Of a stretch of 38,357 nt of DNA, positions 1,896-29,083 are shown one piece after another. The stretch lies in NCBI GenBank assembly GCA_964630025.1, contig CAZVRG010000006.1, forward strand, positions 1 to 38,357, read 5' to 3'. Below the pieces are notes generated by a model. The model saw only the letters and a program-made list of their open reading frames with translations. It ran no database searches and was not told the origin of the DNA. Both the position numbers and the translations under genes were made by a program. This stretch comes from an uncultured Candidatus Saccharibacteria bacterium (GTDB lineage: Bacteria > Patescibacteriota > Andersenbacteria > UBA10190 > CAIZMI01). Every line of letters begins with the position of its first letter. Within the stretch, counting starts at the first letter, position 1.

Positions 1896-3397
1896 CTAAA
1901 GCTCGGCAAATGGCGCCCGGTACTGCAGCGCTTCCGCCACATGCGCGGTTGCGATGTATTGCTCGCTCCTAAGATCCGCAATCGTGCGCGCCACGCGAAG
2001 AACGCGATGAATGCCGCGGGCGGAGAGTCCCAGCTTTGTCGCGGCCGTTTCCAGCAGCGCGGTTCCATCAGCCGACAGCGCGCAATGCTCTTTCATCTCC
2101 GCAAAGGACAGCGTGGCGTTGATCCGTGATGTGTGCGCAAAGCGCTGTGCTTGCCGTTCCCGCGCGGCAGCAACGCGCTCGCGTACAGCGGGCGACGTCT
2201 CGCCATGTGCTGCATTGCTCAACAACACACGCGGCGCAACTGGCGGAACGTGGACGTGCATGTCAATGCGGTCGAGCAGTGGCCCACTTATTCGCTCTCG
2301 GTACCGGAGCACGGTGCCCGGCGGACAGCGACAGAGGTGCGTGGGGTCACCCGCGTACCCGCACGGACACGGGTTCATGGCAGCCACCAGCGTGAAGTGG
2401 GCCGGAAAGGTCACGGAGCCGGATGCGCGACTCACATGCACCGTGCCTTCCTCGAGCGGTTGCCGCAGATGCTCCAAGACATGGCGCGGAAATTCCGCGA
2501 ACTCATCGAGAAACAACACGCCGCGATGGGCGATTGTCACTTCGCCCGGCTGCCAATGAGCGCAACGGCGGATATCGAATGGTGCGGGGCGCGGAACGGC
2601 CGTGTGCGCAGGAGGCCGCTGCCAGCAGACAGCAATCCGCGAATGCTCCAGATTTTTGTGACTTCAAACGCTTCGGCGTCGGAAAGCGATGGAAGAATGC
2701 CAAGGAGCGCCTTGGCAAGCAGGCTTTTCCCGGAGCCGGGCGGCCCATGCAACAAAATGTTATGCCCACCTGCCGCAGCAATCTCGAGTGCGCGCTTCGC
2801 ATGCGCTTGCTCGGCGATGGCACTGAAATCAGGAATGGTATCGGCAACCGCAGCAGGAGCATCATCAGAAGGCTGAACGACCGATAAGAGTGCGCGCTCT
2901 TCCAGATGATCGAGAAGTTCTTTGACGGTTCGCGGCGCAAGAACGGAAAGGCCGGACGCCCGAACTTCTGCCGCATTGCCGGGAGGAACAACAAGAGAAC
3001 GGATCCCTTGCCGGCGTGCGGATTCCGCAATCGCGAAGACGCCCGGAATAGCTTGCAGGGAACCATCAAGATTCAAGGCGCCCACCACCAGCATGTCGTC
3101 GGGAACGCGCAGCACCTGTCCGGTTGCCGCAAGAAACGCAAGCGCAATGGGAAGATCGTACTGCGGTCCCTCTTTGCGGACATGTGCGGGTGCGAGATTC
3201 ACAATTGTTCGGTGCCGCGGCGGGACCAGGCCGGTGTTTTGGAGCGCGGCGGTAATACGCTCGCGTGCTTCCTTCACGGCCGTGTCCGGCAATCCGACAA
3301 TCGTCACGCTCGGCAATCCTTGCAATTCCTCGACTTGCACATCCACCGGAACGGCATCAATCCCGACAATCGCAGCGGAACGGACGGTCGCGGGCAT
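1896..3397 (-). pseudogene. comM: YifB/ComM Mg-chelatase-like AAA ATPase, frameshifted near 2550
   Basis: N-terminal part has IVGLPDTAVKEARERI, GPPGSGKS and RPFRAPHH. C-terminal part, in another frame, has PGEVTIAHRGVLFLDE, AAMNPCPCG and ISGPLLDRID. The usual GGG..P linker is missing at the junction. Confidence 0.88.
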
Positions 3398-3401
3398 AGG
3401 G
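3354..3401 (-). repeat. Direct repeat copy A: current comM 5' end
   Basis: gcatcaatcccgacaatcgcagcggaacggacggtcgcgggcataggg matches 3937-4008. Confidence 0.9.
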
Positions 3402-3406
3402 AGCAA

Positions 3407-4848: not shown

Positions 4849-6246
4849 ATGCATCGCCGACCGTGGCTGCTGGCATTCGGCGAAACAGTTATTGCATTCG
4901 CGCGGCGCAGAATATTTGAACGCGGCGCGCTGATTTTGGTGGGGACGTCCGCATTAAGCTACGCCTTGGGCGTGATGCGCGATCGCGTGCTGGCATCGAC
5001 ATTCGGCGCGTCCGATGCGTTCGACGCCTATCAGGCGTCATTTATTATTCCCGACTTCCTTTTCAATCTGTTTGCCGCCGCCGCGCTCTCTGCGGCATTT
5101 ATTCCCGTCTTTACCGACCTGCGCACCCAGCATCGCGAGACGGACGCGGCGCGTCTCGCCGGGACCATCCTTGCGTTCGGGGGGGTCGCGCTGCTGCTGG
5201 TTGGCGGAGGCGTATTCCTGTTTGCGGAACCGCTTGCGGCACTTGTCGCTCCCGGCTTTGCGCCGGAAAAGCACCATCTTCTTGTGCAGCTCACACGGCT
5301 CATGTTGTTGTCTCCGCTTCTGTTCCTCGTGAGCAACCTTCTGGGGAGCATGCTGGTTTCATCCAAGCGATTTCTCTTCTACGGCCTGTCTCCCGCGCTC
5401 TACAATCTGGGCATCATTGCCGGAGCGCTCGTGCTCGCGCCGCGGTTTGGCATTCTCGGCGTGACGCTGGGCACATTATGTGGTGCGACCCTGCATCTTC
5501 TCGCGCGCATCATTGATGCGCGCCGCGCGGGGCTGCGCTTGCTTCCGACGTTTCAGACCTCTCCGCACCTGCGCAAAGTGGTGCTGCTGATGCTGCCGCG
5601 CATCGCCGGACTCGCCGGCATTCAGCTGCAATTATGGGCATTCACTGCCATCGCCTCCACGCTCGGCGAAGGCGCGGTTACGGTGGTGAATCTCGCGCGC
5701 AACTTTCAGAGCTTTCCGGTGAGTCTTGTCGGCATTGCCTTCGCAACGTCGTTATTCCCTCTTCTCGCGGAGGCGGCGAGTCATCGCGCACGTGATGCGT
5801 ACGTGCGCCGACTTCTTCGCGGCGCGTTCGCAACGCTGGCAATTACCATTCCCGCAGCGCTTGTCCTGTATGTGCTTCGCGTCCCGCTCATCACGATATT
5901 CCTCGGCACCGGCGCGTTCCACACAGACGCAATTCTCCGCACCGCTGCGGTGCTCGGGGTCTACACGCTCTCCATTCCCGCGGAAAGCCTCGCGCATATT
6001 CTCGCGCGCGGGTTCTACGCACTGCACAACACGCTTCTGCCAACACTGTTCAGTCTCCTTGGGATTGGCATTTCGATTACGGCCAGCGTGATCCTTGCGG
6101 GACGTCTTGGGCCCATTGGCATCCCCGCCGGCTTCGCGCTCGGCGAAGGCGCTCATGTCATCGCGCTCGCAATTGTTTTGTGGCTATGGACGCGCCGCAC
6201 GTTCGCGCCCCGTGCTGCTGCTATTTCGGCGTCACCAATAGAATAA
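4849..6246 (+). CDS. murJ: Lipid II flippase MurJ (MviN)
   Basis: LGVMRDRVLASTFGA, DAYQASFIIPD, SAAFIPVF, PALYNLGII, FPVSLVGIAFATSLFP, RGFYALHNT; many TM helices. Confidence 0.93.
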   Translation: MHRRPWLLAFGETVIAFARRRIFERGALILVGTSALSYALGVMRDRVLASTFGASDAFDAYQASFIIPDFLFNLFAAAALSAAFIPVFTDLRTQHRETDAARLAGTILAFGGVALLLVGGGVFLFAEPLAALVAPGFAPEKHHLLVQLTRLMLLSPLLFLVSNLLGSMLVSSKRFLFYGLSPALYNLGIIAGALVLAPRFGILGVTLGTLCGATLHLLARIIDARRAGLRLLPTFQTSPHLRKVVLLMLPRIAGLAGIQLQLWAFTAIASTLGEGAVTVVNLARNFQSFPVSLVGIAFATSLFPLLAEAASHRARDAYVRRLLRGAFATLAITIPAALVLYVLRVPLITIFLGTGAFHTDAILRTAAVLGVYTLSIPAESLAHILARGFYALHNTLLPTLFSLLGIGISITASVILAGRLGPIGIPAGFALGEGAHVIALAIVLWLWTRRTFAPRAAAISASPIE

Positions 6247-7036
6247 CGGGCTTCCCTGTGCCGGGCGTGCCGCCGTCGTAGTCTTCCAGCGCGTTCATGA
6301 CGGTGGAGATAGGATAGACAAAATCGGCGCCGCGGCGCGTGCCGGGGTCGTTCGTAATGAATTTCTCTCCTGTCACACCCTTCACGATGAGTGCGTGACG
6401 ATCTGGGCCGGGCGGAGTATAGAACGGATTTCCCAGCTTTTGGCCGTTTACCAACGCAACAACAGGAATCTTCTTCCCGAGCGCCTCCCGAACGTCCTGT
6501 ACTGTCGGATTGTAGATCACGCGCACAGTAAGATGCGGATAGAAATCCCGCGCGAGACGCGCGGTCTCCTCCGCGTTGGAATCAATGTAGAATCCGTACC
6601 GGTCCTTCTGGAATGCCACCATGCGAAGAATTTCTGCATCCATCTCCTGTAACGACAATGACGCGCCGCGGAAAAAGCGTTCCGCCATAATAACGGCCGC
6701 CTCCTCGCACGTATCTTGATATGGCTGCCCCCAATTTCCGAACGGCGCCTGCGGCGCAAAGGGCACTGCGAGATTGACCGCGCTGTTCGGTGTCGTTCCA
6801 GACGGACGCGGTGACGACGTTGCGCGCGGTGCACCTGATGGCGTTACGATAAGGGGAGCATGCGTGACAGCGGTTGGTGCCGGTTCCGCCGACGGCAACG
6901 TTGTCCGATACGGACGCTCTGCAAACCATGCGCGCAACGACGCGCGTTGGGAAACACCAATGAGAAGTACAACCGCGATAGCCGCAATGCTCCCTCCAAG
7001 AGTGATCTGTGTTTGCAGGCGATGCTTCTGTGACAT
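6221..7036 (-). CDS. C39-like cysteine peptidase, membrane-anchored or secreted
   Basis: N-terminal TM helix, Pro/Thr linker, VPFAPQAP...QDTCEEAA, HALIVKG, FITNDPGT (Cys-His-Asp). Confidence 0.8.
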   Translation of the reverse strand: MSQKHRLQTQITLGGSIAAIAVVLLIGVSQRASLRAWFAERPYRTTLPSAEPAPTAVTHAPLIVTPSGAPRATSSPRPSGTTPNSAVNLAVPFAPQAPFGNWGQPYQDTCEEAAVIMAERFFRGASLSLQEMDAEILRMVAFQKDRYGFYIDSNAEETARLARDFYPHLTVRVIYNPTVQDVREALGKKIPVVALVNGQKLGNPFYTPPGPDRHALIVKGVTGEKFITNDPGTRRGADFVYPISTVMNALEDYDGGTPGTGKPVILLVTPK

Positions 7037-7084: not shown

Positions 7085-7582
7085 TTACGGCGTGCCTGTC
7101 GGGCGGTCAGACTCAACGAGCGGGCGCAGAAATGTTGTGAGGAGAAGTGCAAGTCCAACGAGGATCGCACCGTCTGCCACGTTGATCGCGGTGAGGTCAC
7201 CAACCCACAGAATGTCTGTGGTGCGTCCTGCCAGTACGCGTTCAAGGCTATTCGACAGTCCGCCACCTAGAAGAATCCCGACGCCGATCGTCGATGTCCA
7301 TCCGCGTTGCCGTTGCGCCGTGTGCAATGAAAACCACACCCAGAGCACGAGCACAACACCGCCCACGAACGCGGCAATACCGACAGAAGCGATCCCAAAC
7401 GGCCCACGGATATTTTCAAAGAGTCGCAGGGAAAGGCCGGAGAATATTTCATACCCAGCATCTGGAAAAAATTTGCGAACACTATATTTGGTCAGTACAT
7501 CGATGCTGACGACGAGCAGTGCACTGCCCCACAACAGTAACGGAGCGCGCGTCAAGGACCGTGCGCTCTCAAGAAGTTTCAC
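7085..7582 (-). CDS. lspA: Signal peptidase II
   Basis: DVLTK, ENIRGPFG, GGGLSNSLER...TTD, INVAD; four TM segments. Confidence 0.85.
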   Translation of the reverse strand: MKLLESARSLTRAPLLLWGSALLVVSIDVLTKYSVRKFFPDAGYEIFSGLSLRLFENIRGPFGIASVGIAAFVGGVVLVLWVWFSLHTAQRQRGWTSTIGVGILLGGGLSNSLERVLAGRTTDILWVGDLTAINVADGAILVGLALLLTTFLRPLVESDRPTGTP

Positions 7583-7597
7583 GAAAACGAGGTATGG

Positions 7598-7966
7598 TTA
7601 CCCCGCGTGCGCGAGACAGGTGCGGGCAGACGGCAATGCCTCTAAACGTTTTTTCTCGATCGGCGCACCACACGCGGTGCACACGCCATACGAGCCGTCC
7701 GCGACACGTTGCAGGGCAGTCGTCACATCGCGGAGTTGTACTTCCAAACTCTGTTCAACACTGCGCGCAGATTCATACTGCTCCTCTTCCACGACATTAT
7801 CCTCGGGCATTCTGCCAATCTCTTCGACACGCGCTGTATAATCGCCAGGCGTTGTCCCTTTATCAGCGATCCGCGACAACTCTTGCTCGAGTCGCGCTTT
7901 CTCTTCCTCCAATTTTTTCTTTTGTGCGTCAATAAATGCGGCGTCGGGTGCGTTTGGTGATGTCAT
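7598..7966 (-). CDS. TraR/DksA C4-type zinc-finger protein
   Basis: Coiled coil followed by ALQRVADGSYGVCTACGAPIEKKRLEALPSARTC; the fourth ligand appears to be His. Confidence 0.88.
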   Translation of the reverse strand: MTSPNAPDAAFIDAQKKKLEEEKARLEQELSRIADKGTTPGDYTARVEEIGRMPEDNVVEEEQYESARSVEQSLEVQLRDVTTALQRVADGSYGVCTACGAPIEKKRLEALPSARTCLAHAG

Positions 7967-7977
7967 ACCCGTAGTGT

Positions 7978-8028
7978 ACCCCGTTAGAAACCGGGAGTAA
8001 AAGCACTGTGACAAAGTTTCTCACGGGG
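7978..8028. mobile_element. Palindromic element copy 1 (51 bp)
   Basis: ACCCCGTTAGAAAC...GTTTCTCACGGGG with tgt on both sides. Confidence 0.75.
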
Positions 8029-8053
8029 TGTAGCGGATGAAAAAATTTTAGCC

Positions 8054-8109
8054 AAAGGAAAAGCCCCTCAGTCGGGCCATAGAAGTAACTAAGTGCCCCG
8101 AGGGGCTTT
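8054..8109 (-). terminator. Probable intrinsic terminator of the 8490-8055 unit
   Basis: Perfect 10-bp arms aaagcccctc (8060-8069) and gaggggcttt (8100-8109); the minus strand ends in TTTTCCTTT. Confidence 0.6.
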
Positions 8110-8490
8110 AAGACATGTGATCGCGGACGCGGCCCGTACTTTCTCGGAACGATCTTTTGGATCCTTCAGAGGAAGTACGGGTGGCATCACTTCGTCGATC
8201 ATATGTCGGTTCTTAACCTCCAAGTGGCTGAAGATTAAGGGTGTGCCTCCACTCGTCGGGTGAGAGAAGGTGTCAAACGCTGCCGGAAACGCCTTCATCA
8301 CCATGATTTCGGTGTCCAATGAGCAACTTGTTTGGTGCGTGTGGGTGTGGGTGTCATTGGGACGCCACTGTCCGCGTCAGAATAGAAGCACCGTTCGAGT
8401 ACTGATAGGGGGAAATCAGTACTCGAGCGGCACTCCCGCCTCCAAGCCCCTCGCGCACGATCCAAACACTGTGAAAGAAAACGCTAACAA
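8055..8490 (-). ncRNA. Candidate structured non-coding RNA or regulatory leader, family unknown
   Basis: Near-consensus promoter upstream, terminator downstream, at least five long stems in between, no convincing ORF; strand taken from the promoter. Confidence 0.5.
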
Positions 8491-8495
8491 AGGGA

Positions 8496-8524
8496 AGTAT
8501 AGCAGTTCTGAACCCACTCGTCAA
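8496..8524 (-). promoter_or_regulatory. Sigma70-type promoter
   Basis: TTGACG-N17-TATACT on the minus strand. Confidence 0.8.
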
Positions 8525-8655
8525 TTTTCCAGCACGATGAAGAAGGATTTCCGCTGCAGAAAGCCAAATCTTTTTTCCTCTCCAGGGAGACGTGTACGAG
8601 ATGCGCGTGCTACGCGGAAGTTTTCCACACGCCCCTGCGGGGGCAGCGTTCGCGA

Positions 8656-10068
8656 TTAGGGAATATTCCCGCGGTTTCCTGTAGGCGCCCATTCAATGTT
8701 CGCAGAAAACTGCACACCACGCGCGTCGGGAGCAACCTCAACCGTCAGCTGCCCGAGCGCCTCTGCCCATGTACGAAGCGCGGGCGCGGCGCCGCGCAGA
8801 GCAAACTGGACAATCGGGATATGGCGCCCCACGGCTCCATCCACAAAGAATCGCTGGGCGGAATCTTGGATATCGTCCGAACGAAGCGATACGCCCACCA
8901 AGAGCAGCGGGTCCAGTGCATTTCCAACAAGGACAAACTGGTCCCGAAATGCGGCAAAGAGATCACTGTGCCCGGGCGCTCCGGATGCCCGCAGTATCCT
9001 CCAACCATCGCGATACGTTTCTTCGATACCATCCGGAGATGCGGCTGGAGACGACGGTTGCTGCGGACGAACATGCCGAATGCTGCGTCCATTCGCGCGA
9101 ACCGTTTCTCCTGTGGCGTGTGTCATCGCGAAACGACGCGAAAGGAGTTTTCGTATTGCATCTTCAACAGTGGAGTGCGTATGTTCGTCGACAGTCACGC
9201 CGCCGGTGACGGCAATCTGTCCATCCGGCTGCGCATGAACAACAAGCAGCGACGGATTGCCATCAAGAAGCTCCGTCAGCGCTCGCAATTCCGATGCAAC
9301 GCCCGTCTCTGCGCGCACTGCCTCCAGTAATGGAGGAAGTTCGGAGGGAAAGAGGGCGGACATCGGCACGCCGTCGACAATCACCACGGCATGTTCTGGT
9401 CGCCGCAAGAGCAAACGACCACCGACGGCGGTGGCGGATGTCGCCAGAGGAAGGCGTCCCGCGATGTGCAGACGCTGTCCATCTCCCCGAACAGTGAGTG
9501 CAACAAAAGTGTTCAGGCCGCGCGGCGGTACAAGGAGAGGAAATTGTCGGGAAATCCATCGCGGGTGCAACCACACATGGACATCCGTTTCGCCACCGAT
9601 CTGCTGCCGTGACACAAACGGAAGTGCCACCGTATCTGCGGGAGGAGATACAACGCTTTCCGCATGGTCACCAATCACCGTGAGCGAACCGCTGTCGACG
9701 CCAGAAAGACCAAAACGATGCGCAACGGAACGTTCCGCAATCATGACGGTTGTATATACGTTCTCCGCAGTTTCCAGAACAAGAGTTGCGCGTATCGGCA
9801 TGGACGGAGAACGTGCCGCGGCTGGAACATCAAGAACTGTTCGCAAAAAATCGCGGGTGCTGGCATGGTCGCCTGTTGCCGCCGCTCTCTCTGCGGGTTC
9901 AAGCATCACCACACGGACCGTCGGTGGAAGACGGTGCAGAAGTCGAAGAAGTGTCGCATCGGGACTGGTAGCGCGAAGGACAAGAAAGACCAGCGCGAAC
10001 GCTGTGACAATGGCCACAATAATGATGCGCGCATCACCGATGAGCGACCGAAGCATGATGTGCGTCAT
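8656..10068 (-). CDS. Hypothetical membrane-anchored protein (DUF3352-like)
   Basis: N-terminal TM helix; EETYRDGWRIL...LFAAFRDQFVLVGN resembles the neighbouring gene; start uncertain. Confidence 0.65.
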   Translation of the reverse strand: MTHIMLRSLIGDARIIIVAIVTAFALVFLVLRATSPDATLLRLLHRLPPTVRVVMLEPAERAAATGDHASTRDFLRTVLDVPAAARSPSMPIRATLVLETAENVYTTVMIAERSVAHRFGLSGVDSGSLTVIGDHAESVVSPPADTVALPFVSRQQIGGETDVHVWLHPRWISRQFPLLVPPRGLNTFVALTVRGDGQRLHIAGRLPLATSATAVGGRLLLRRPEHAVVIVDGVPMSALFPSELPPLLEAVRAETGVASELRALTELLDGNPSLLVVHAQPDGQIAVTGGVTVDEHTHSTVEDAIRKLLSRRFAMTHATGETVRANGRSIRHVRPQQPSSPAASPDGIEETYRDGWRILRASGAPGHSDLFAAFRDQFVLVGNALDPLLLVGVSLRSDDIQDSAQRFFVDGAVGRHIPIVQFALRGAAPALRTWAEALGQLTVEVAPDARGVQFSANIEWAPTGNRGNIP

Positions 10069-10086
10069 AGAATCTTCGAAGCATAC

Positions 10087-10153
10087 TACCACGTCATGAT
10101 ATTGTCCTCTCGTATCATGCGTGGTACGAAACCGCCGGCGTAAACGCCGGCGG
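10087..10153. other. Two intergenic hairpins
   Basis: taccacg-t-catgata/tatcatg-cgtggta and ccgccggcgt-aa-acgccggcgg. Confidence 0.5.
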
Positions 10154-10175
10154 GTACGAGGTGTGTTCGAGACGC

Positions 10176-11858
10176 TTATAGAGGAAGAACCGGCGCGGGC
10201 GTTGGAGACGCGGGAATATCTGTTGCGGAAGGTGGTGGGGGTTCTCGCAACAGGATTGCGCCTGTGTAGAGTCCATCGTTCACCGGGCGGAGGACAAGAC
10301 CATCGAGAACAGCAGACATGCTGTGGTACGCCGGCGGAAGTTCGTTCTGAAGTGCTGTACTGCCACGGAAGAAAGACCACGCTGATTGATCAACCGTCTC
10401 GGCAAGAACACGAAAAGTTTCCACCGTCGCGAGTGTTGGCACTGCTTCCTGCAGCGCATCAAGCACAGCGTGCATCGCGGATCGCGACGTTGCGATGATA
10501 AGGAGATCGTCTACCACCGCGTAATCGAGCGCCCGCGTCGGGGAGCCAAAGTTCATGTACCGTACCGCCACATCGCGATACGTTGCCTCGGTAAAGGCCG
10601 CATCCGCGAATGCGGAGCCTGTCAGATAGGGGCCAAAGGCGGGACCGGCGGCCTCCAACACCCGCAGAGAAGACTGCGTATCCGTCCCCCCGGGTTTGAG
10701 CGTAAGCAGCGCAACAACATCACGAACGCCTGCAGTGTCCGTTGGCAGCGTGCCCAGAATAGCCGTTCCTTCAAAAGACTGGAGAAGGTTTCCAAACGCG
10801 TCTGAACGTTCTTGCAGCGCCTGCGCAACGGGACGCAACCCGGAAGGAATGCGTTCGGATGTGAGAACGTCGGCAAGACTGCGTAGAGGATATTCCATCG
10901 CCATCATCACGGTGTGCGGCAGTGTAGCGGCAAGACGTATGCCGGTGACGCCAGCGCTTGATGATGCGTTTTGCTGCGCAGAGGAAGGTGCGTCCACGCG
11001 CGCGACAACGCTTGCGCTTCCTCCTTCCCCGCTCGGCACAATGGCCATCACGAGAGACGCGTCGTGCGAAAGCGGATGGGAGAAAAAGGGCTGAAGAAGT
11101 GTTGCGAGTACACCCGGACGCGCCGCCATCAAGATAGGTGGCTGCGCAGGAAGCCCATGGAGAGCGCGCTGAAATGCGCGTTCCCGCCCCCAGGTACTCC
11201 CAGAGAATGCCCGCACGCGCCCAAGATTGGTACTGTCGGTAATCAGCACGCCCTCCGAGACAGATGCGAGGCCCAATGCCGGCGATGCGGAAAGATCGAC
11301 CGTGGGAATGCCACGAACAAGAATGGCAGGAACCGGTTCTGCGGCCGACGGGCCAGGCAGGAGCAGATAGGTGATATCACTGGCGCCGGCAACCTGCCCG
11401 GCCTGGAGCCCGTTCATGGTTGCAAAAAAACCGGGAAGCAGCGTGGACGCTTGGGCGTCTCCGGAACGTACGCTCACGAATGCCTGTGCCTCACTCGGAA
11501 TGCTGTCCGCAACCGTCCCTGATGAGCGGGGGAGAAGCCGTATCGCAACCCACACCCCCACGCCAACAAGGACAACCAGCGGGAGCACAAGGAGAAGCAC
11601 GGGCACGATCCGCCGGCGGGGCCGTGCATCTGCTGGCAATCCAACAACCTGTCGGGGCTGGGCAGTGGACAGCGCCGGTGCCGTACCTGCCGCAGCGGGA
11701 GGAAGCGGTCCGGTTCCCGTGAGCCCGCCGCGTGCGGCATCCGCGAGATCATCCGCCATCGTACGGATTGGCGGCAGACTCCCTCCCTCCGCACGCTGTG
11801 CACGCGGAGGATCGCTCCCGGCGACGGGAGATCGTGACGATGCAGGAACGGCAATCAT
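10176..11858 (-). CDS. Hypothetical single-pass membrane protein (DUF3352-like)
   Basis: IRTMADDL motif, one TM helix, then ATYRDVAVRYMNF...LDYAVVDDLLIIATS; start could be 11906. Confidence 0.75.
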   Translation of the reverse strand: MIAVPASSRSPVAGSDPPRAQRAEGGSLPPIRTMADDLADAARGGLTGTGPLPPAAAGTAPALSTAQPRQVVGLPADARPRRRIVPVLLLVLPLVVLVGVGVWVAIRLLPRSSGTVADSIPSEAQAFVSVRSGDAQASTLLPGFFATMNGLQAGQVAGASDITYLLLPGPSAAEPVPAILVRGIPTVDLSASPALGLASVSEGVLITDSTNLGRVRAFSGSTWGRERAFQRALHGLPAQPPILMAARPGVLATLLQPFFSHPLSHDASLVMAIVPSGEGGSASVVARVDAPSSAQQNASSSAGVTGIRLAATLPHTVMMAMEYPLRSLADVLTSERIPSGLRPVAQALQERSDAFGNLLQSFEGTAILGTLPTDTAGVRDVVALLTLKPGGTDTQSSLRVLEAAGPAFGPYLTGSAFADAAFTEATYRDVAVRYMNFGSPTRALDYAVVDDLLIIATSRSAMHAVLDALQEAVPTLATVETFRVLAETVDQSAWSFFRGSTALQNELPPAYHSMSAVLDGLVLRPVNDGLYTGAILLREPPPPSATDIPASPTPAPVLPL

Positions 11859-11906
11859 GGTGATGTGTGTATGCGAAAATTGCGGACGAACGACGTCCTC
11901 TAGCAT

Positions 11907-26492: not shown

Positions 26493-26861
26493 TTATTGAA
26501 GCAGCGCGTCGATCACGAAGTTCACGAGGACCGCAGCGATGCCGATAATCACAATACCGATGACGGCATTCACAATAATGTTCTTTGCTTTCTCCACCTG
26601 ACCCTCATCGCCACGCGAGGTGATGTACAAAAATCCCGCGTACACAATAAACGCAAGTGCGAGCACGCCCACTAACGTGAGGGTCCAATTGATGATGTTA
26701 ACAATCATGGTAGGGAGATCTCGTGCCTGTGGCTGCACAGCATACCCCTGGATTCCCTGCGCGCCCAAATCAGCTCCCTGTTGCGCGAGAGCGCCATGGG
26801 GAAAGAGACTGACGCTGACGCCAACGACCAATGCAAGAAGAAGGAGAGAGCGAATCGTCAT
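26493..26861 (-). CDS. TrbC/VirB2-like pilin, copy 5
   Basis: IINWTLTLVGVLALAFIVYAGFLYITSRGDEGQVEKAK. Confidence 0.85.
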   Translation of the reverse strand: MTIRSLLLLALVVGVSVSLFPHGALAQQGADLGAQGIQGYAVQPQARDLPTMIVNIINWTLTLVGVLALAFIVYAGFLYITSRGDEGQVEKAKNIIVNAVIGIVIIGIAAVLVNFVIDALLQ

Positions 26862-26929
26862 TGTTCGTCTTTGCTTTTCCACAAGAGATCTCTTTAACCG
26901 TAGCATGCAACGGACGTTGTGACTACTGC

Positions 26930-27289
26930 TTACGGACGCGGATTGGCAAGCGGCGGTTCTACCGTTTGGGACGTGCCGAGCACGGCGCTGATAACAAAGT
27001 TCACAAGAAGCGCCGCAATACCAAGCACTACGAGACCGATAACCGCGTAGGTAATCGTGTTTTTTGCGTTTTCAACATCGCGCTCTTCTCCGCGGGAGAT
27101 GATGTACCGAAAGCCGCCATAGACGATAAAGCCGAGAGCGATCACCGCGGCGAGCGTCAGGCTCCAATTTATAATGCGCAGAATAAGATCGGGAAGTTCC
27201 TCGTCAGGCAAGCCCACACGTTGTGCTGCATTCAATCCGCGCCGCAATTCTCCTTGCGCGTAGACGACAGGGACGAGAAGACGCCACAT
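26930..27289 (-). CDS. TrbC/VirB2-like pilin, copy 4
   Basis: IINWSLTLAAVIALGFIVYGGFRYIISRGEERDVENAK. Confidence 0.85.
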   Translation of the reverse strand: MWRLLVPVVYAQGELRRGLNAAQRVGLPDEELPDLILRIINWSLTLAAVIALGFIVYGGFRYIISRGEERDVENAKNTITYAVIGLVVLGIAALLVNFVISAVLGTSQTVEPPLANPRP

Positions 27290-27299
27290 CGTTGGTCCT

Positions 27300-27707
27300 T
27301 TACCTTCCTCCGTCCGGCCGGGGAGCGGGCAGAGATTCCGCCGGATCGATGATGTTTATGACAAAGGATACAATCGCAAAGGCAAGACCAATCGCGATAA
27401 TCCCGATAATTGCGTACGTGATCGTTTTCTTTGCGTCCTCCACCTCACGCTCATCCCCGCGGGAAATGATATAGCGAAACCCTCCGTAGACGATGAAACC
27501 GAGAGCGATCACCGCGACGAGGGTAAGTGCAGCCCGAACAACCTGTGCGATCAGTACGGGAAGGGGATCTGTTGGAAGGCCCGTCCCGGATACATTCGGC
27601 GGCTTAAACTGCGCAGAAGCGGGGAATGCAAGCGCAAGCGCGAGCATGGAACTCCCGAGGCGAGAAAGGGGGGAAACGTACCGATGCAGGGACGTTCGCA
27701 GATTCAT
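27300..27707 (-). CDS. TrbC/VirB2-like pilin, copy 3
   Basis: AVIALGFIVYGGFRYIISRGDEREVEDAKKTITYAIIG. Confidence 0.85.
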   Translation of the reverse strand: MNLRTSLHRYVSPLSRLGSSMLALALAFPASAQFKPPNVSGTGLPTDPLPVLIAQVVRAALTLVAVIALGFIVYGGFRYIISRGDEREVEDAKKTITYAIIGIIAIGLAFAIVSFVINIIDPAESLPAPRPDGGR

Positions 27708-28150
27708 CTTCCACTTCGATCAATAGCCCCTCCTCCGCGATCAGTCCGATCAATAAGCCCTCCCGATTGCGGCCCGCTGAGCGCACGAAAGACAAACGTC
27801 AGAATCGCGTAGGACAACGCAATCACCACCAGCCCGACGATGCTGTAAAAAATCGCGTGTTTGCCTTGTTCAATGCGATCCTGATTCCCCGCCGCGGTGA
27901 TGTAGAGAAACCCGCCGTACACAATCGCCGCAAGCGCCAGCACACCCGCAAGGCCGAGCACGTAATTCACCACCAGAAGAACACATTCGTCGATTTTGTT
28001 GCATCCGATCGGATTCGTGATGGTTGAGGAAGCTTGCTGCGCATGCACAAACGCGGGAGCTGCTACCGCAACGCATACGAGAAGAACGACAACAGCCCAA
28101 ACGAGGCGAGAAGCAGGTATGCGTCTGATCATAGCTTCGATGCTCTTCAT
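27704..28150 (-). CDS. TrbC/VirB2-like pilin, copy 2
   Basis: ITNPIGC...LALAAIVYGGFLYITAAGNQDRIEQGK...IVGL. Confidence 0.85.
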   Translation of the reverse strand: MKSIEAMIRRIPASRLVWAVVVLLVCVAVAAPAFVHAQQASSTITNPIGCNKIDECVLLVVNYVLGLAGVLALAAIVYGGFLYITAAGNQDRIEQGKHAIFYSIVGLVVIALSYAILTFVFRALSGPQSGGLIDRTDRGGGAIDRSGR

Positions 28151-28177
28151 GGTAGCACAGCTATAGATGAACGTTCC

Positions 28178-29083
28178 TTAGCGTCCTCCGCTCGGAATCA
28201 GCTGCTGTATTTCCGGAGGGGGACTCTGCAAACGCCCGGGGCTTACGTCGAGCACAGAAAGAATTGTGCGCACAATCACGAATGCGCCAAGCAGCACCAC
28301 AAGTCCAATAAGTGCGTACAGTATGCTCTGCTTCGCTCCCGCGATTGCGGAGCTATCGGCGCCCTGAAAGACCGCGAGAATGTACTTCAGTCCCGCCCAA
28401 ATGATGGCAAGGAGTGCCACTGCCCCTCCGGTCGCGAGCAGCCAGTTGAAGATACGCGCGCCGAGTCCGAAAAGTTCCTGCAAGGTGCATGGTTTCTCGC
28501 CTTGGCCGCACTGAACCAGTCCGCCGGCGCTACCGTCCCTGTTTGCACTCCCTGCGGAAGAGCCCACATCGCCGGCTGCTTGACCAGCGGAACGCGCGGC
28601 GGAAGATCCTGATGAAGCCCTGGGCACTCCGGGCGGCAGACGGTGAACAGCGCTGTCGTACACCGTTCTCTTCAACGGATCTTGTACGACAAGGGGAAGA
28701 TCTCCAGAACCGGCGAATCGTTCCGCCGGCAGTGTCCACGATCCTGGAATGGTCGAAGAGGGTGCAAGCTTCTGTCCGCCTAATGAGAGTGTGTATCCCT
28801 CGACCTGGTGAAACAGCCCGGGATCGAGACCGGGCTGTACAACATCCAACGTGACAAACTCATTCCGTGTCGGCGCAACAGCAAGCGATCGGTCGCTGCG
28901 AAAGCCGCCCGTTCCTGATTCAGAACTAAATCGCAGAAAAACGTCTCCTTGCCGCGATTGTCCAATGCGTACGTGTGGAGAGAGATCCTGACCAAAAACG
29001 GTCGCGGACGACAGCATGAGCATAACGCCAACGATACAAAGTGTTGGTACGCGTCTCACGATATGTGACACAGAGGTACTCAT
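28178..29083 (-). CDS. Large pilin-like protein, copy 1: N-terminal domain fused to a VirB2-like core
   Basis: GLVQCG...PCTLQEL...IIWAGLKYI...AKQSILYALIG at the C-terminus. Confidence 0.75.
   Translation of the reverse strand: MSTSVSHIVRRVPTLCIVGVMLMLSSATVFGQDLSPHVRIGQSRQGDVFLRFSSESGTGGFRSDRSLAVAPTRNEFVTLDVVQPGLDPGLFHQVEGYTLSLGGQKLAPSSTIPGSWTLPAERFAGSGDLPLVVQDPLKRTVYDSAVHRLPPGVPRASSGSSAARSAGQAAGDVGSSAGSANRDGSAGGLVQCGQGEKPCTLQELFGLGARIFNWLLATGGAVALLAIIWAGLKYILAVFQGADSSAIAGAKQSILYALIGLVVLLGAFVIVRTILSVLDVSPGRLQSPPPEIQQLIPSGGR

Follow-up and report, generated by a model that had tools for sequence, protein, structure and literature searches.

The raiA motif RNA keeps a fixed gene neighbour and has its own promoter and terminator, and the gene of 6S RNA likewise has a neighbour, in the arrangement ssrS-ygfA. 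Protein-sponge small RNAs (sRNAs), among them CrcZ with its A-rich 'CA motifs' and CsrB/RsmZ, carry repeated single-stranded motifs in five to twenty tracts. One account (PMC12286853) refers to OLE, ROOL and GOLLD as ornate RNAs of large size. Here we describe an RNA gene from an uncultured Candidatus Saccharibacteria bacterium (NCBI GenBank assembly GCA_964630025.1). The window analysed is the whole stretch of 38,357 nt of contig CAZVRG010000006.1, and coordinates given without a contig are positions in it. On its minus strand, positions 8052 to 8489 form a real, single-copy and strongly structured RNA gene that is new to Rfam.

Like OLE, ROOL, GOLLD, HEARO and raiA, this RNA is several hundred nucleotides long with many covariation-supported helices, is restricted to certain lineages, occurs once per genome and has no housekeeping role that would explain it. 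It nevertheless matches none of their Rfam models and differs from the ornate RNAs in its parts, which are a hairpin with a C-rich loop, a CA-rich linker, a central domain, a hairpin of 95 nt and a terminator. It also differs in its hosts, which belong to the Candidate Phyla Radiation (CPR), and in its gene neighbours, which are DUF3352-like, DksA/TraR-like and lspA genes. An earlier note on this DNA, made from the letters of the window alone, had proposed a novel large structured non-coding RNA (ncRNA), and this proposal is upheld by the lack of any Rfam hit, the lack of a conserved open reading frame (ORF) and heavy covariation.

Promoter, terminator and predicted transcript

Throughout, G000 is the assembly holding the window, G001 a genome of the same genus, f1 the family of G000 and f2 its sister family. 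L-numbers (e.g., L075, L079, L084) denote loci, and R1, R2 and R3 are successive covariance models of the hairpin. About 690 nt without a convincing gene separate a 574-amino acid (aa) ORF (8656–10380, minus strand) from a DksA/TraR-type gene (7598–7966, minus strand). A promoter scan found in this interval, on the minus strand, the sigma-70-type promoter TTGACG-N17-TATACT (8496–8524), in which a TG precedes the −10 hexamer (extended −10). It is the sole promoter-like site in 7900–8750, with 10/12 consensus matches (shuffled sequences gave a mean of 0.4). From the −10 element, the start of the transcript is placed about 7 nt downstream and its end in a U tract, which gives a predicted ncRNA of ~435 nt (8052–8489, minus strand). 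The terminator-like hairpin (8060–8109) is followed by the U tract UUUUCCUUU, so that the whole feature spans 8054–8109 on the minus strand. It is recovered both in the fold and as helix 9 of the consensus structure, where 5/9 pairs have changed on both sides, with pairing kept in 99.4% of cells. Both signals had been picked out in the earlier note, and both are in the sequence.

The two signals recur in the homologues. TTGAC-N17-TAnnnT precedes the RNA in all six GTDB genomes of family f1 and in 11 of the 13 metagenome loci, the remaining two being cut by contig ends, and 394–466 nt lie between the −10 hexamer and the point where the U tract of the terminator ends. A simple pattern matched both promoter (TTGAC-N17-TAnnnT) and terminator (GGSCUUUU) in 16/19 loci. 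Contig ends account for two of the three failures, and the third is the locus of G001 (L011:1478–1856), in which ~90 nt of the 3′ part of the RNA, including the terminator, are missing. A close metagenome relative of that locus, L084, is intact, and the loss in G001 reflects either a natural deletion or an artefact of the assembly.

Fold stability, covariation and transcribed strand

All the long stems that had been read from the window were located again on recheck. The minus strand folds with −183.4 kcal/mol, compared with −138.0 ± 6.3 kcal/mol for dinucleotide shuffles (z = −7.20; 0/100 shuffles as good), a comparison with shuffled sequence that the earlier note had suggested. The plus strand comes close to this (z = −6.82), so that one sequence alone cannot settle the strand.

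The structure alignment comprises 19 sequences and 507 columns. Its RNAalifold consensus contains 88 pairs, 60 of which are still paired through changes on both sides, a count that exceeds the number of independent events since the sequences are related. The homologues and the compensatory changes for which the earlier note would have searched are thus both at hand. Paired cells amount to 95.2%, compared with 77.1% in column shuffles (0/500 reach the observed value) and 40.9–45.5% when partners are slid by 1–3 columns; pairs with changes on both sides number 60, compared with a mean of 40.3 in column shuffles and 26–32 for slid partners; and the covariation score is 0.538, compared with 0.207 and 0.086–0.125, respectively, the slid control being the fairer throughout because the structure was predicted from the same alignment of related sequences and the shuffle control therefore overstates significance.

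Most mismatches in the stems had previously been read as G-U pairs on the complement of the predicted transcript. In the window alone this hint is undecisive (9 G-U versus 7 A-C on the minus strand), while across the family the non-Watson-Crick cells number 193 G-U versus 29 A-C on the minus strand and favour that strand. With the deletion form of G001 dropped, RNAalifold gave −103.2 kcal/mol and 89 pairs for the remaining 18 sequences in the sense orientation, versus −71.0 kcal/mol and 73 pairs for their reverse complement. The G-U excess and the better consensus fold in the sense orientation together indicate that the transcript corresponds to the minus strand of the window, which agrees with the positions of promoter and terminator and supports the strand that had been proposed.

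Known RNA classes, coding sequence and retrons

At the gathering score, Rfam 15 identifies only three tRNAs in the whole window. At E ≤ 10, the region 7900–8750 yields only five chance-level matches (E 2.0 to 6.9), and no match was found at E ≤ 0.1 in the loci of seven relatives. T-box and other riboswitch aptamer models are among those without a match at these two thresholds, and the statement that no RNase P, tmRNA, SRP or T-box signature is recognisable holds, since none of these Rfam families is matched in the region even at E ≤ 10. A full-text literature search found no published description of this RNA, although a motif reported only in a supplement would escape such a search.

It is very unlikely that the RNA is a divergent housekeeping RNA (tmRNA, RNase P RNA, SRP RNA or 6S RNA) missed by standard models, although G000 has no recognisable tmRNA, SmpB, SRP RNA or 6S RNA, and a length of ~435 nt lies within the size range of tmRNA and RNase P RNA. 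The tmRNA was a serious candidate at first, because G000 has neither a recognisable tmRNA nor smpB; ARAGORN, run on the window and on all 72 contigs, detected no tmRNA. SmpB, however, is encoded by 37/41 relatives, including all five other f1 genomes, and standard tmRNAs of 99–135 bits are found at other loci in G001, G002, G003 and G005, in G001 beside smpB. Since relatives that carry the RNA described here hold tmRNA and smpB elsewhere, this RNA is not tmRNA; it has no tRNA-like end, and the region matches neither RF00023 nor the permuted forms. The absence of both tmRNA and smpB from G000 (assembly 96.7% complete) is most likely an assembly gap.

As for RNase P RNA (RF00010), the region has no match at E ≤ 10, and the genome has its own copy elsewhere, at C13:17601–18042 (L001; E 2.2e-16, model positions 12–347). 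That copy is itself divergent: it scores 54.5 bits versus an Rfam gathering score of 100, and routine annotation would miss it. The models of 6S RNA (RF00013) have no match in the genome at E ≤ 1, and the consensus structure is multi-domain instead of a single rod with a central bubble.

SRP RNA (RF00169, RF01854) has no match in the region or in the genome, and no GNRA-capped helix 8 is found in the RNA. The protein partner is missing as well: 0/41 genomes of the order have an Ffh M domain (PF02978), and in G000 no GTPase of the SRP54 type scores above the cut-off. More generally, the order as a whole appears to lack an SRP pathway. The small SRP RNA (RF00169) was found in 0/41 of its genomes and large SRP RNA in 0/1 and 0/5, and the SRP54-type GTPase domain (PF00448), for which G000 was the only genome checked, gave a 21-bit match below the cut-off; in control genomes, 12–14/14 were positive for RF00169, PF02978 and PF00448 and 7–10/14 for RF01854.

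A protein-coding or pseudogenised region, in which the stems would be incidental to a GC-rich sequence, is extremely improbable. GC-rich members do hold long frames, of 76 and 55 codons in the window and of 114 codons, across most of the element, in G001. Yet the 76-aa ORF (8089–8319) and the 114-aa frame of G001 lie in different frames with 1-nt indels between them, neither has a Pfam match, and a 2-nt indel separates G002 from G005 within the element. The AT-rich members share no open frame, L079 having none of at least 35 codons on the RNA strand, and compensatory changes occur on both strands at 60 helix positions. On the opposite strand, a conserved open frame at alignment columns of about 109–307 was rejected as a composition effect, the complement of a CA-rich tract being devoid of stop codons, and is broken by the same 2-nt indel between G002 and G005. 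The absence of a convincing ORF had already been remarked, and there is no conserved coding signal in the 8089–8319 ORF or in any other frame. The earlier note had also raised, as a weaker idea, a retron-like template whose complementary strand folds. This did not survive: a Pfam scan of the immediate neighbours and the 31 window ORFs of at least 100 aa found no reverse transcriptase domain, the complementarity of the 5′ and 3′ segments expected of an msr/msd element is not conserved, and the structured strand is the transcript itself.

Distribution

A DNA search detected the element in G001 (73% identity) and a 49-nt piece of it in G003, where the RNA is full length, an apparent short form in that genome having arisen from an ORF extended too far. 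A pattern scan of genome contigs returned 39 stretches, of which only those in G001 and G003 were genuine, the other 37 being without the hairpin context. The R1 covariance model of the 5′ hairpin found exactly one locus in each of the six f1 genomes and none in the 35 genomes of f2, and a metagenome scan with a degenerate hairpin pattern added 13 contigs that carry the RNA.

In the four f2 genomes that were read (G006, G010, G012 and G027), 560–635 nt of non-coding sequence precede the dksA-like gene and lspA; common to all four are CA-rich tracts, one long hairpin and a terminator. The loop in G006, G010 and G027 reads AUUUCCCCCUAU or AUCUCCCCCUAU and sits on a different stem from that of f1. 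The R2 model, built on both families, matched 24/42 genomes of the class (6/6 in f1 and 18/35 in f2), with one sense-strand match each. R3 matched 16 of 151 genomes sampled across the phylum, again once each; outside the order, 10/144 sampled genomes from at least six other families were positive. The combination of a strong promoter, the hairpin, a AAACAAAAACAAA-type tract and a terminator recurs in these distant loci. The RNA is thus a conserved single-copy feature of a class of ultra-small bacteria of the CPR/Patescibacteria type, and several further families of the phylum have it too.

In G015, a genome of the sister family, the conserved hairpin (C5:98734–98811) lies ~1.8 kb upstream of lspA (C5:100549), and the stretch read between them (L088) is unusual and repeat-rich. 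The RNA of G015 may be much longer or carry an insertion.

Architecture of the RNA

From 5′ to 3′ along the minus strand, the first feature is a G-rich segment, CGAGGGGCUU (8444–8453), the exact complement of 8099–8108 in the 5′ arm of the terminator. It is followed by a long hairpin of 54 nt (8384–8437; consensus helix 2), to which the 8391–8406/8415–8430 stem belongs and whose apical loop UUUCCCCCUA occupies 8406–8415. Covariation supports this helix, 7 of its 21 pairs having changes on both sides, with 97.5% of cells paired. The loop core TCCCCCTAT is invariant in 20 aligned sequences, all of them retrieved through that motif or through hairpin models based on it. A pseudoknot partner for the C-rich loop was sought and rejected, as the G-rich candidates sit at differing places in each lineage and nothing consistent emerged.

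Separately from the RNA, G000 contains at least nine copies (L111–L120) of a repeated element of about 110 nt, at C2:~50200, C13:~27144, C20:~6682, C22:~7230, C26:~2942, C27:~9153, C38:~1088, C45:~5329 and C56:~2774. Each begins with a long perfect hairpin and GAGCAC; the G-rich boxes AGGGGGAG and GAGGGGGAA come next, together with a hairpin formed by GGGAACC/GGUUCCC, and the repeat matches no Rfam family. Its AGGGGGA boxes are complementary to the conserved UCCCCCU loop of the RNA, an observation on which we base no claim.

A CA-rich linker (8327–8354, minus strand), recognised as an A/C-rich tract and by comparison of homologues, is apparently single-stranded, and a AAACAAACA-like tract lies 3′ of the hairpin in all families read. 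In the window, the linker is enclosed by the pairing ggtgtccaatga/tcattgggacgcc (8314–8322/8354–8363); a helix at this place is plausible, although the alignment is ragged there. The central domain (8212–8302, minus strand), supported by covariation, consists of nested GGUGA/UCACC and GAAGG/CCUUC stems (helices 4 and 5; 8259–8302), a conserved block CACCCGACGAGUGGAGGCAC (8243–8262) and a CUUAA...UUAAG hairpin (helix 6; 8212–8239). Changes on both sides affect 5/5 pairs of helix 5 and 6/8 pairs of helix 6. Between the central domain and the terminator, a further long hairpin of about 95 nt (8112–8207, minus strand; helices 7 and 8) carries the conserved internal motif GAAGUNAUG, and 31/35 of its pairs show changes on both sides, with 94–95% of cells paired.

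Gene neighbourhood

The gene downstream of the RNA encodes a DksA/TraR-type C4 zinc-finger protein of 122 aa (7598–7966, minus strand; Pfam E 1.6e-8), its start codon, the ATG at 7966, having been chosen by alignment with G001. It is followed on the same strand by lspA (7085–7582) and a C39-like peptidase gene (6221–7036). Downstream lspA on the same strand is found in 14/18 family-level loci; two of the four exceptions are too short, and in G002 and G005 tblastn finds none at E < 1e-3. A DksA/TraR zinc-finger gene, confirmed by Pfam, is found downstream in 6/9 distant loci, including other classes. On the other side, the window and several other loci have a DUF3352-like gene upstream of the RNA, and the RNA keeps a conserved place between DUF3352-like and DksA/TraR-like zinc-finger genes; many ultra-small bacteria from groundwater have it next to the small zinc-finger gene. 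The upstream region in the window holds two tandem ORFs of about 575 aa (8659–11906, minus strand), with a single weak DUF3352 match (E 9e-4), and related ORFs precede the RNA even in other classes.

Two further gene arrangements in the window were observed. Four consecutive ORFs (26496–29083, minus strand) each match PF18895, a pilin domain of type IV secretion, with E-values between 1.5e-7 and 2.4e-14. A Mg-chelatase/ComM-like ATPase is split over two abutting ORFs (1899–3406, minus strand), of which 2540–3406 holds the ChlI domain and Mg_chelatase model positions 1–94, and 1899–2540 holds positions 103–203 and the C-terminal domain. Possible causes of the split are a frameshift, an error in sequencing and a programmed event.

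A DnaA-box-like motif upstream of the promoter

A 9-mer, TTTTCCACA, that fits the DnaA-box-like pattern TTWTNCACA lies at 8621–8629 on the plus strand, about 100 nt upstream of the −35 element. In the window the pattern is unremarkable by itself (2 matches versus 1.34 expected). Across loci, by contrast, 18 matches fall in 5,620 nt upstream of the −35 element versus 5 in 66,750 nt elsewhere in the same loci, which is a density about 43-fold higher, and at least one box is present in 17/28 loci; nine further loci were dropped from this count, as the pattern found no promoter or hairpin in them. Within the family the box lies at −105 to −119, a constancy that may reflect shared descent; in distant families it lies at −13 to −18 in the other orientation. 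The box may be bound by DnaA. A replication origin was considered for the region and rejected, there being one strict DnaA box near the element, no skew switch in the window and, in 4 genomes, a dnaA gene 61–143 kb away.

Alternative pairing and a possible cis-acting leader

The segment 8444–8453 is exactly complementary to 8099–8108 and is the best upstream partner of that arm of the terminator in the window (−21.7 kcal/mol by RNAduplex). The end-to-end pairing pointed out in the earlier note is therefore real in the window, but as a closing stem it does not extend beyond the nearest relatives: it ranks first in no sequence other than the window and L084, third in L075, and outside the top three in the other 15 sequences. 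Because it is limited to the closest relatives, it is not a defining feature of the RNA. A second competitor for the terminator 5′ arm is the 3′ strand of helix 7, a stretch of 14 nt immediately 5′ of the terminator. This pairing is the best partner in 8/18 sequences and among the top three in 13/18. Its bases vary by lineage (GUGGGGC/GCCCCAC, CUGGGGC/GCCCCAG and UAGGGUU/AGCCCUA) and thus co-vary with the terminator arms. The result is an arrangement of four segments, in which either 1:2 and 3:4 form together or 2:3 forms alone.

The second pairing would suit a very long cis-acting 5′ leader, attenuator- or riboswitch-like, of the operon of the dksA-like gene, lspA and the peptidase gene. By default, the base of helix 7 would form and the terminator would halt transcription; a ligand, protein or RNA that disturbs helix 7 would let its 3′ strand pair with the terminator 5′ arm, and transcription would read through into dksA. 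We regard this explanation as less likely than a trans-acting RNA, but as a serious rival. In line with it, every family-level locus read and 6/9 distant loci have the RNA directly upstream of a DksA/TraR-like gene and in the same orientation, and as in attenuators and riboswitch leaders such as the T-box, the 5′ arm of the terminator has a mutually exclusive partner. Yet known riboswitch classes are far smaller than 435–635 nt, this RNA being several times larger than such leaders, and no riboswitch or T-box model matches it. The antiterminator-like pairing is weak or absent in 5/18 sequences, the window included, and the model has no role for the C-loop hairpin, the CA linker and the central domain. 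In some lineages, moreover, other sequence separates the RNA from the dksA-like gene: G115 has a UPF0102 gene at this place, G148 an ORF-like stretch, and family f11 about 300 nt with a second terminator-like hairpin. The dksA-like gene may also have a start of its own. A −10-like TACACT lies 6 nt upstream of its ATG in the window (7964–7978), and TAYACT is found 6–10 nt before the ATG, with no Shine-Dalgarno sequence, in the window as well as in L012, L084, L089 and L091, which suggests leaderless, independent transcription of dksA.

A proposed trans-acting RNA linked to a DksA/TraR-like gene

On balance, we lean towards an RNA that is transcribed independently, acts in trans, binds protein and has a functional tie to the DksA/TraR-like gene. 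This interpretation is favoured by the RNA's own promoter and terminator, by its size and multi-domain build, by the exposed loop and the single-stranded tract, and by the lineages in which dksA is separated from it. A strong sigma-70-type promoter would drive the RNA and its own intrinsic terminator would end it, and the terminated product of ~435 nt would be the functional one, presumably as a protein-binding RNA or as the scaffold of a ribonucleoprotein (RNP). Its contact surfaces would be the C-rich apical loop and the CA-rich single-stranded linker.

Several observations weigh against this interpretation. Transcript, ends and abundance are predictions, as a sequencing-run search placed the stretch in four DNA runs of two groundwater-metagenome studies and in no RNA run, and the relatedness of the aligned sequences tempers the covariation counts given above. 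G012, the sole genome read of its genus, has the RNA without the C-rich loop, and the R2 hairpin model matches 0/14 genomes of that genus, from which it follows that the loop is not indispensable. The RNA is always on the same strand as the dksA-like gene and upstream of it, in the family often with 20–110 nt between terminator and ATG, as a cis-acting leader would be. The consensus scan of 7900–8750 in the window found no separate dksA promoter with a −35 element, and the alternative pairing at the terminator is attenuator-like in form. A trans-acting RNA and a dksA-lspA attenuator are not mutually exclusive, and transcription that runs past the terminator, in a measure set by the alternative pairing on its 5′ side, may also supply dksA-lspA.

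If the RNA does act in trans, its persistent linkage to a DksA/TraR-type gene would point to shared function or shared regulation and would resemble RNA polymerase-associated RNAs, such as 6S or Ms1, with a fixed neighbour. It shares with these a housekeeping-type promoter, a stable structured product (predicted here) and a persistent gene neighbour, which in the present case belongs to the DksA/TraR family, whose characterised members bind RNA polymerase. It differs in being over twice the length of 6S RNA, with no single rod and central bubble and no RF00013 match. With CrcZ and CsrB/RsmZ it shares an exposed conserved loop and an unpaired A/C-rich tract that resembles AAnAAnAA repeats, and by analogy this tract and the loop could serve as protein-binding platforms; unlike those RNAs, it has only one or two such tracts and consists mostly of stable helices. 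A more specific proposal is that the RNA is a subunit of a new RNP with the DksA/TraR-type protein and a DnaA-controlled promoter, which would link replication status to RNA polymerase activity or to envelope-protein biogenesis. We consider this improbable as it stands.

Implications

Large covariation-supported bacterial RNAs without known function are rare, and OLE, ROOL, GOLLD and raiA each opened new biology. The present RNA is unusual in being conserved as a single copy at the level of a class, in genomes of ~1 Mb that keep little that is dispensable, and in being tied to a DksA/TraR-type gene and a DnaA-box-like promoter site. A new Rfam family would stop spurious ORF calls across the RNA in GC-rich members. 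Should the RNP proposal be true, the RNA would represent a new CPR-specific class of housekeeping RNA, in an order apparently without the SRP pathway. The locus offers a testable entry into regulation in the CPR/Patescibacteria, for which hardly any regulatory RNA is known from experiment.

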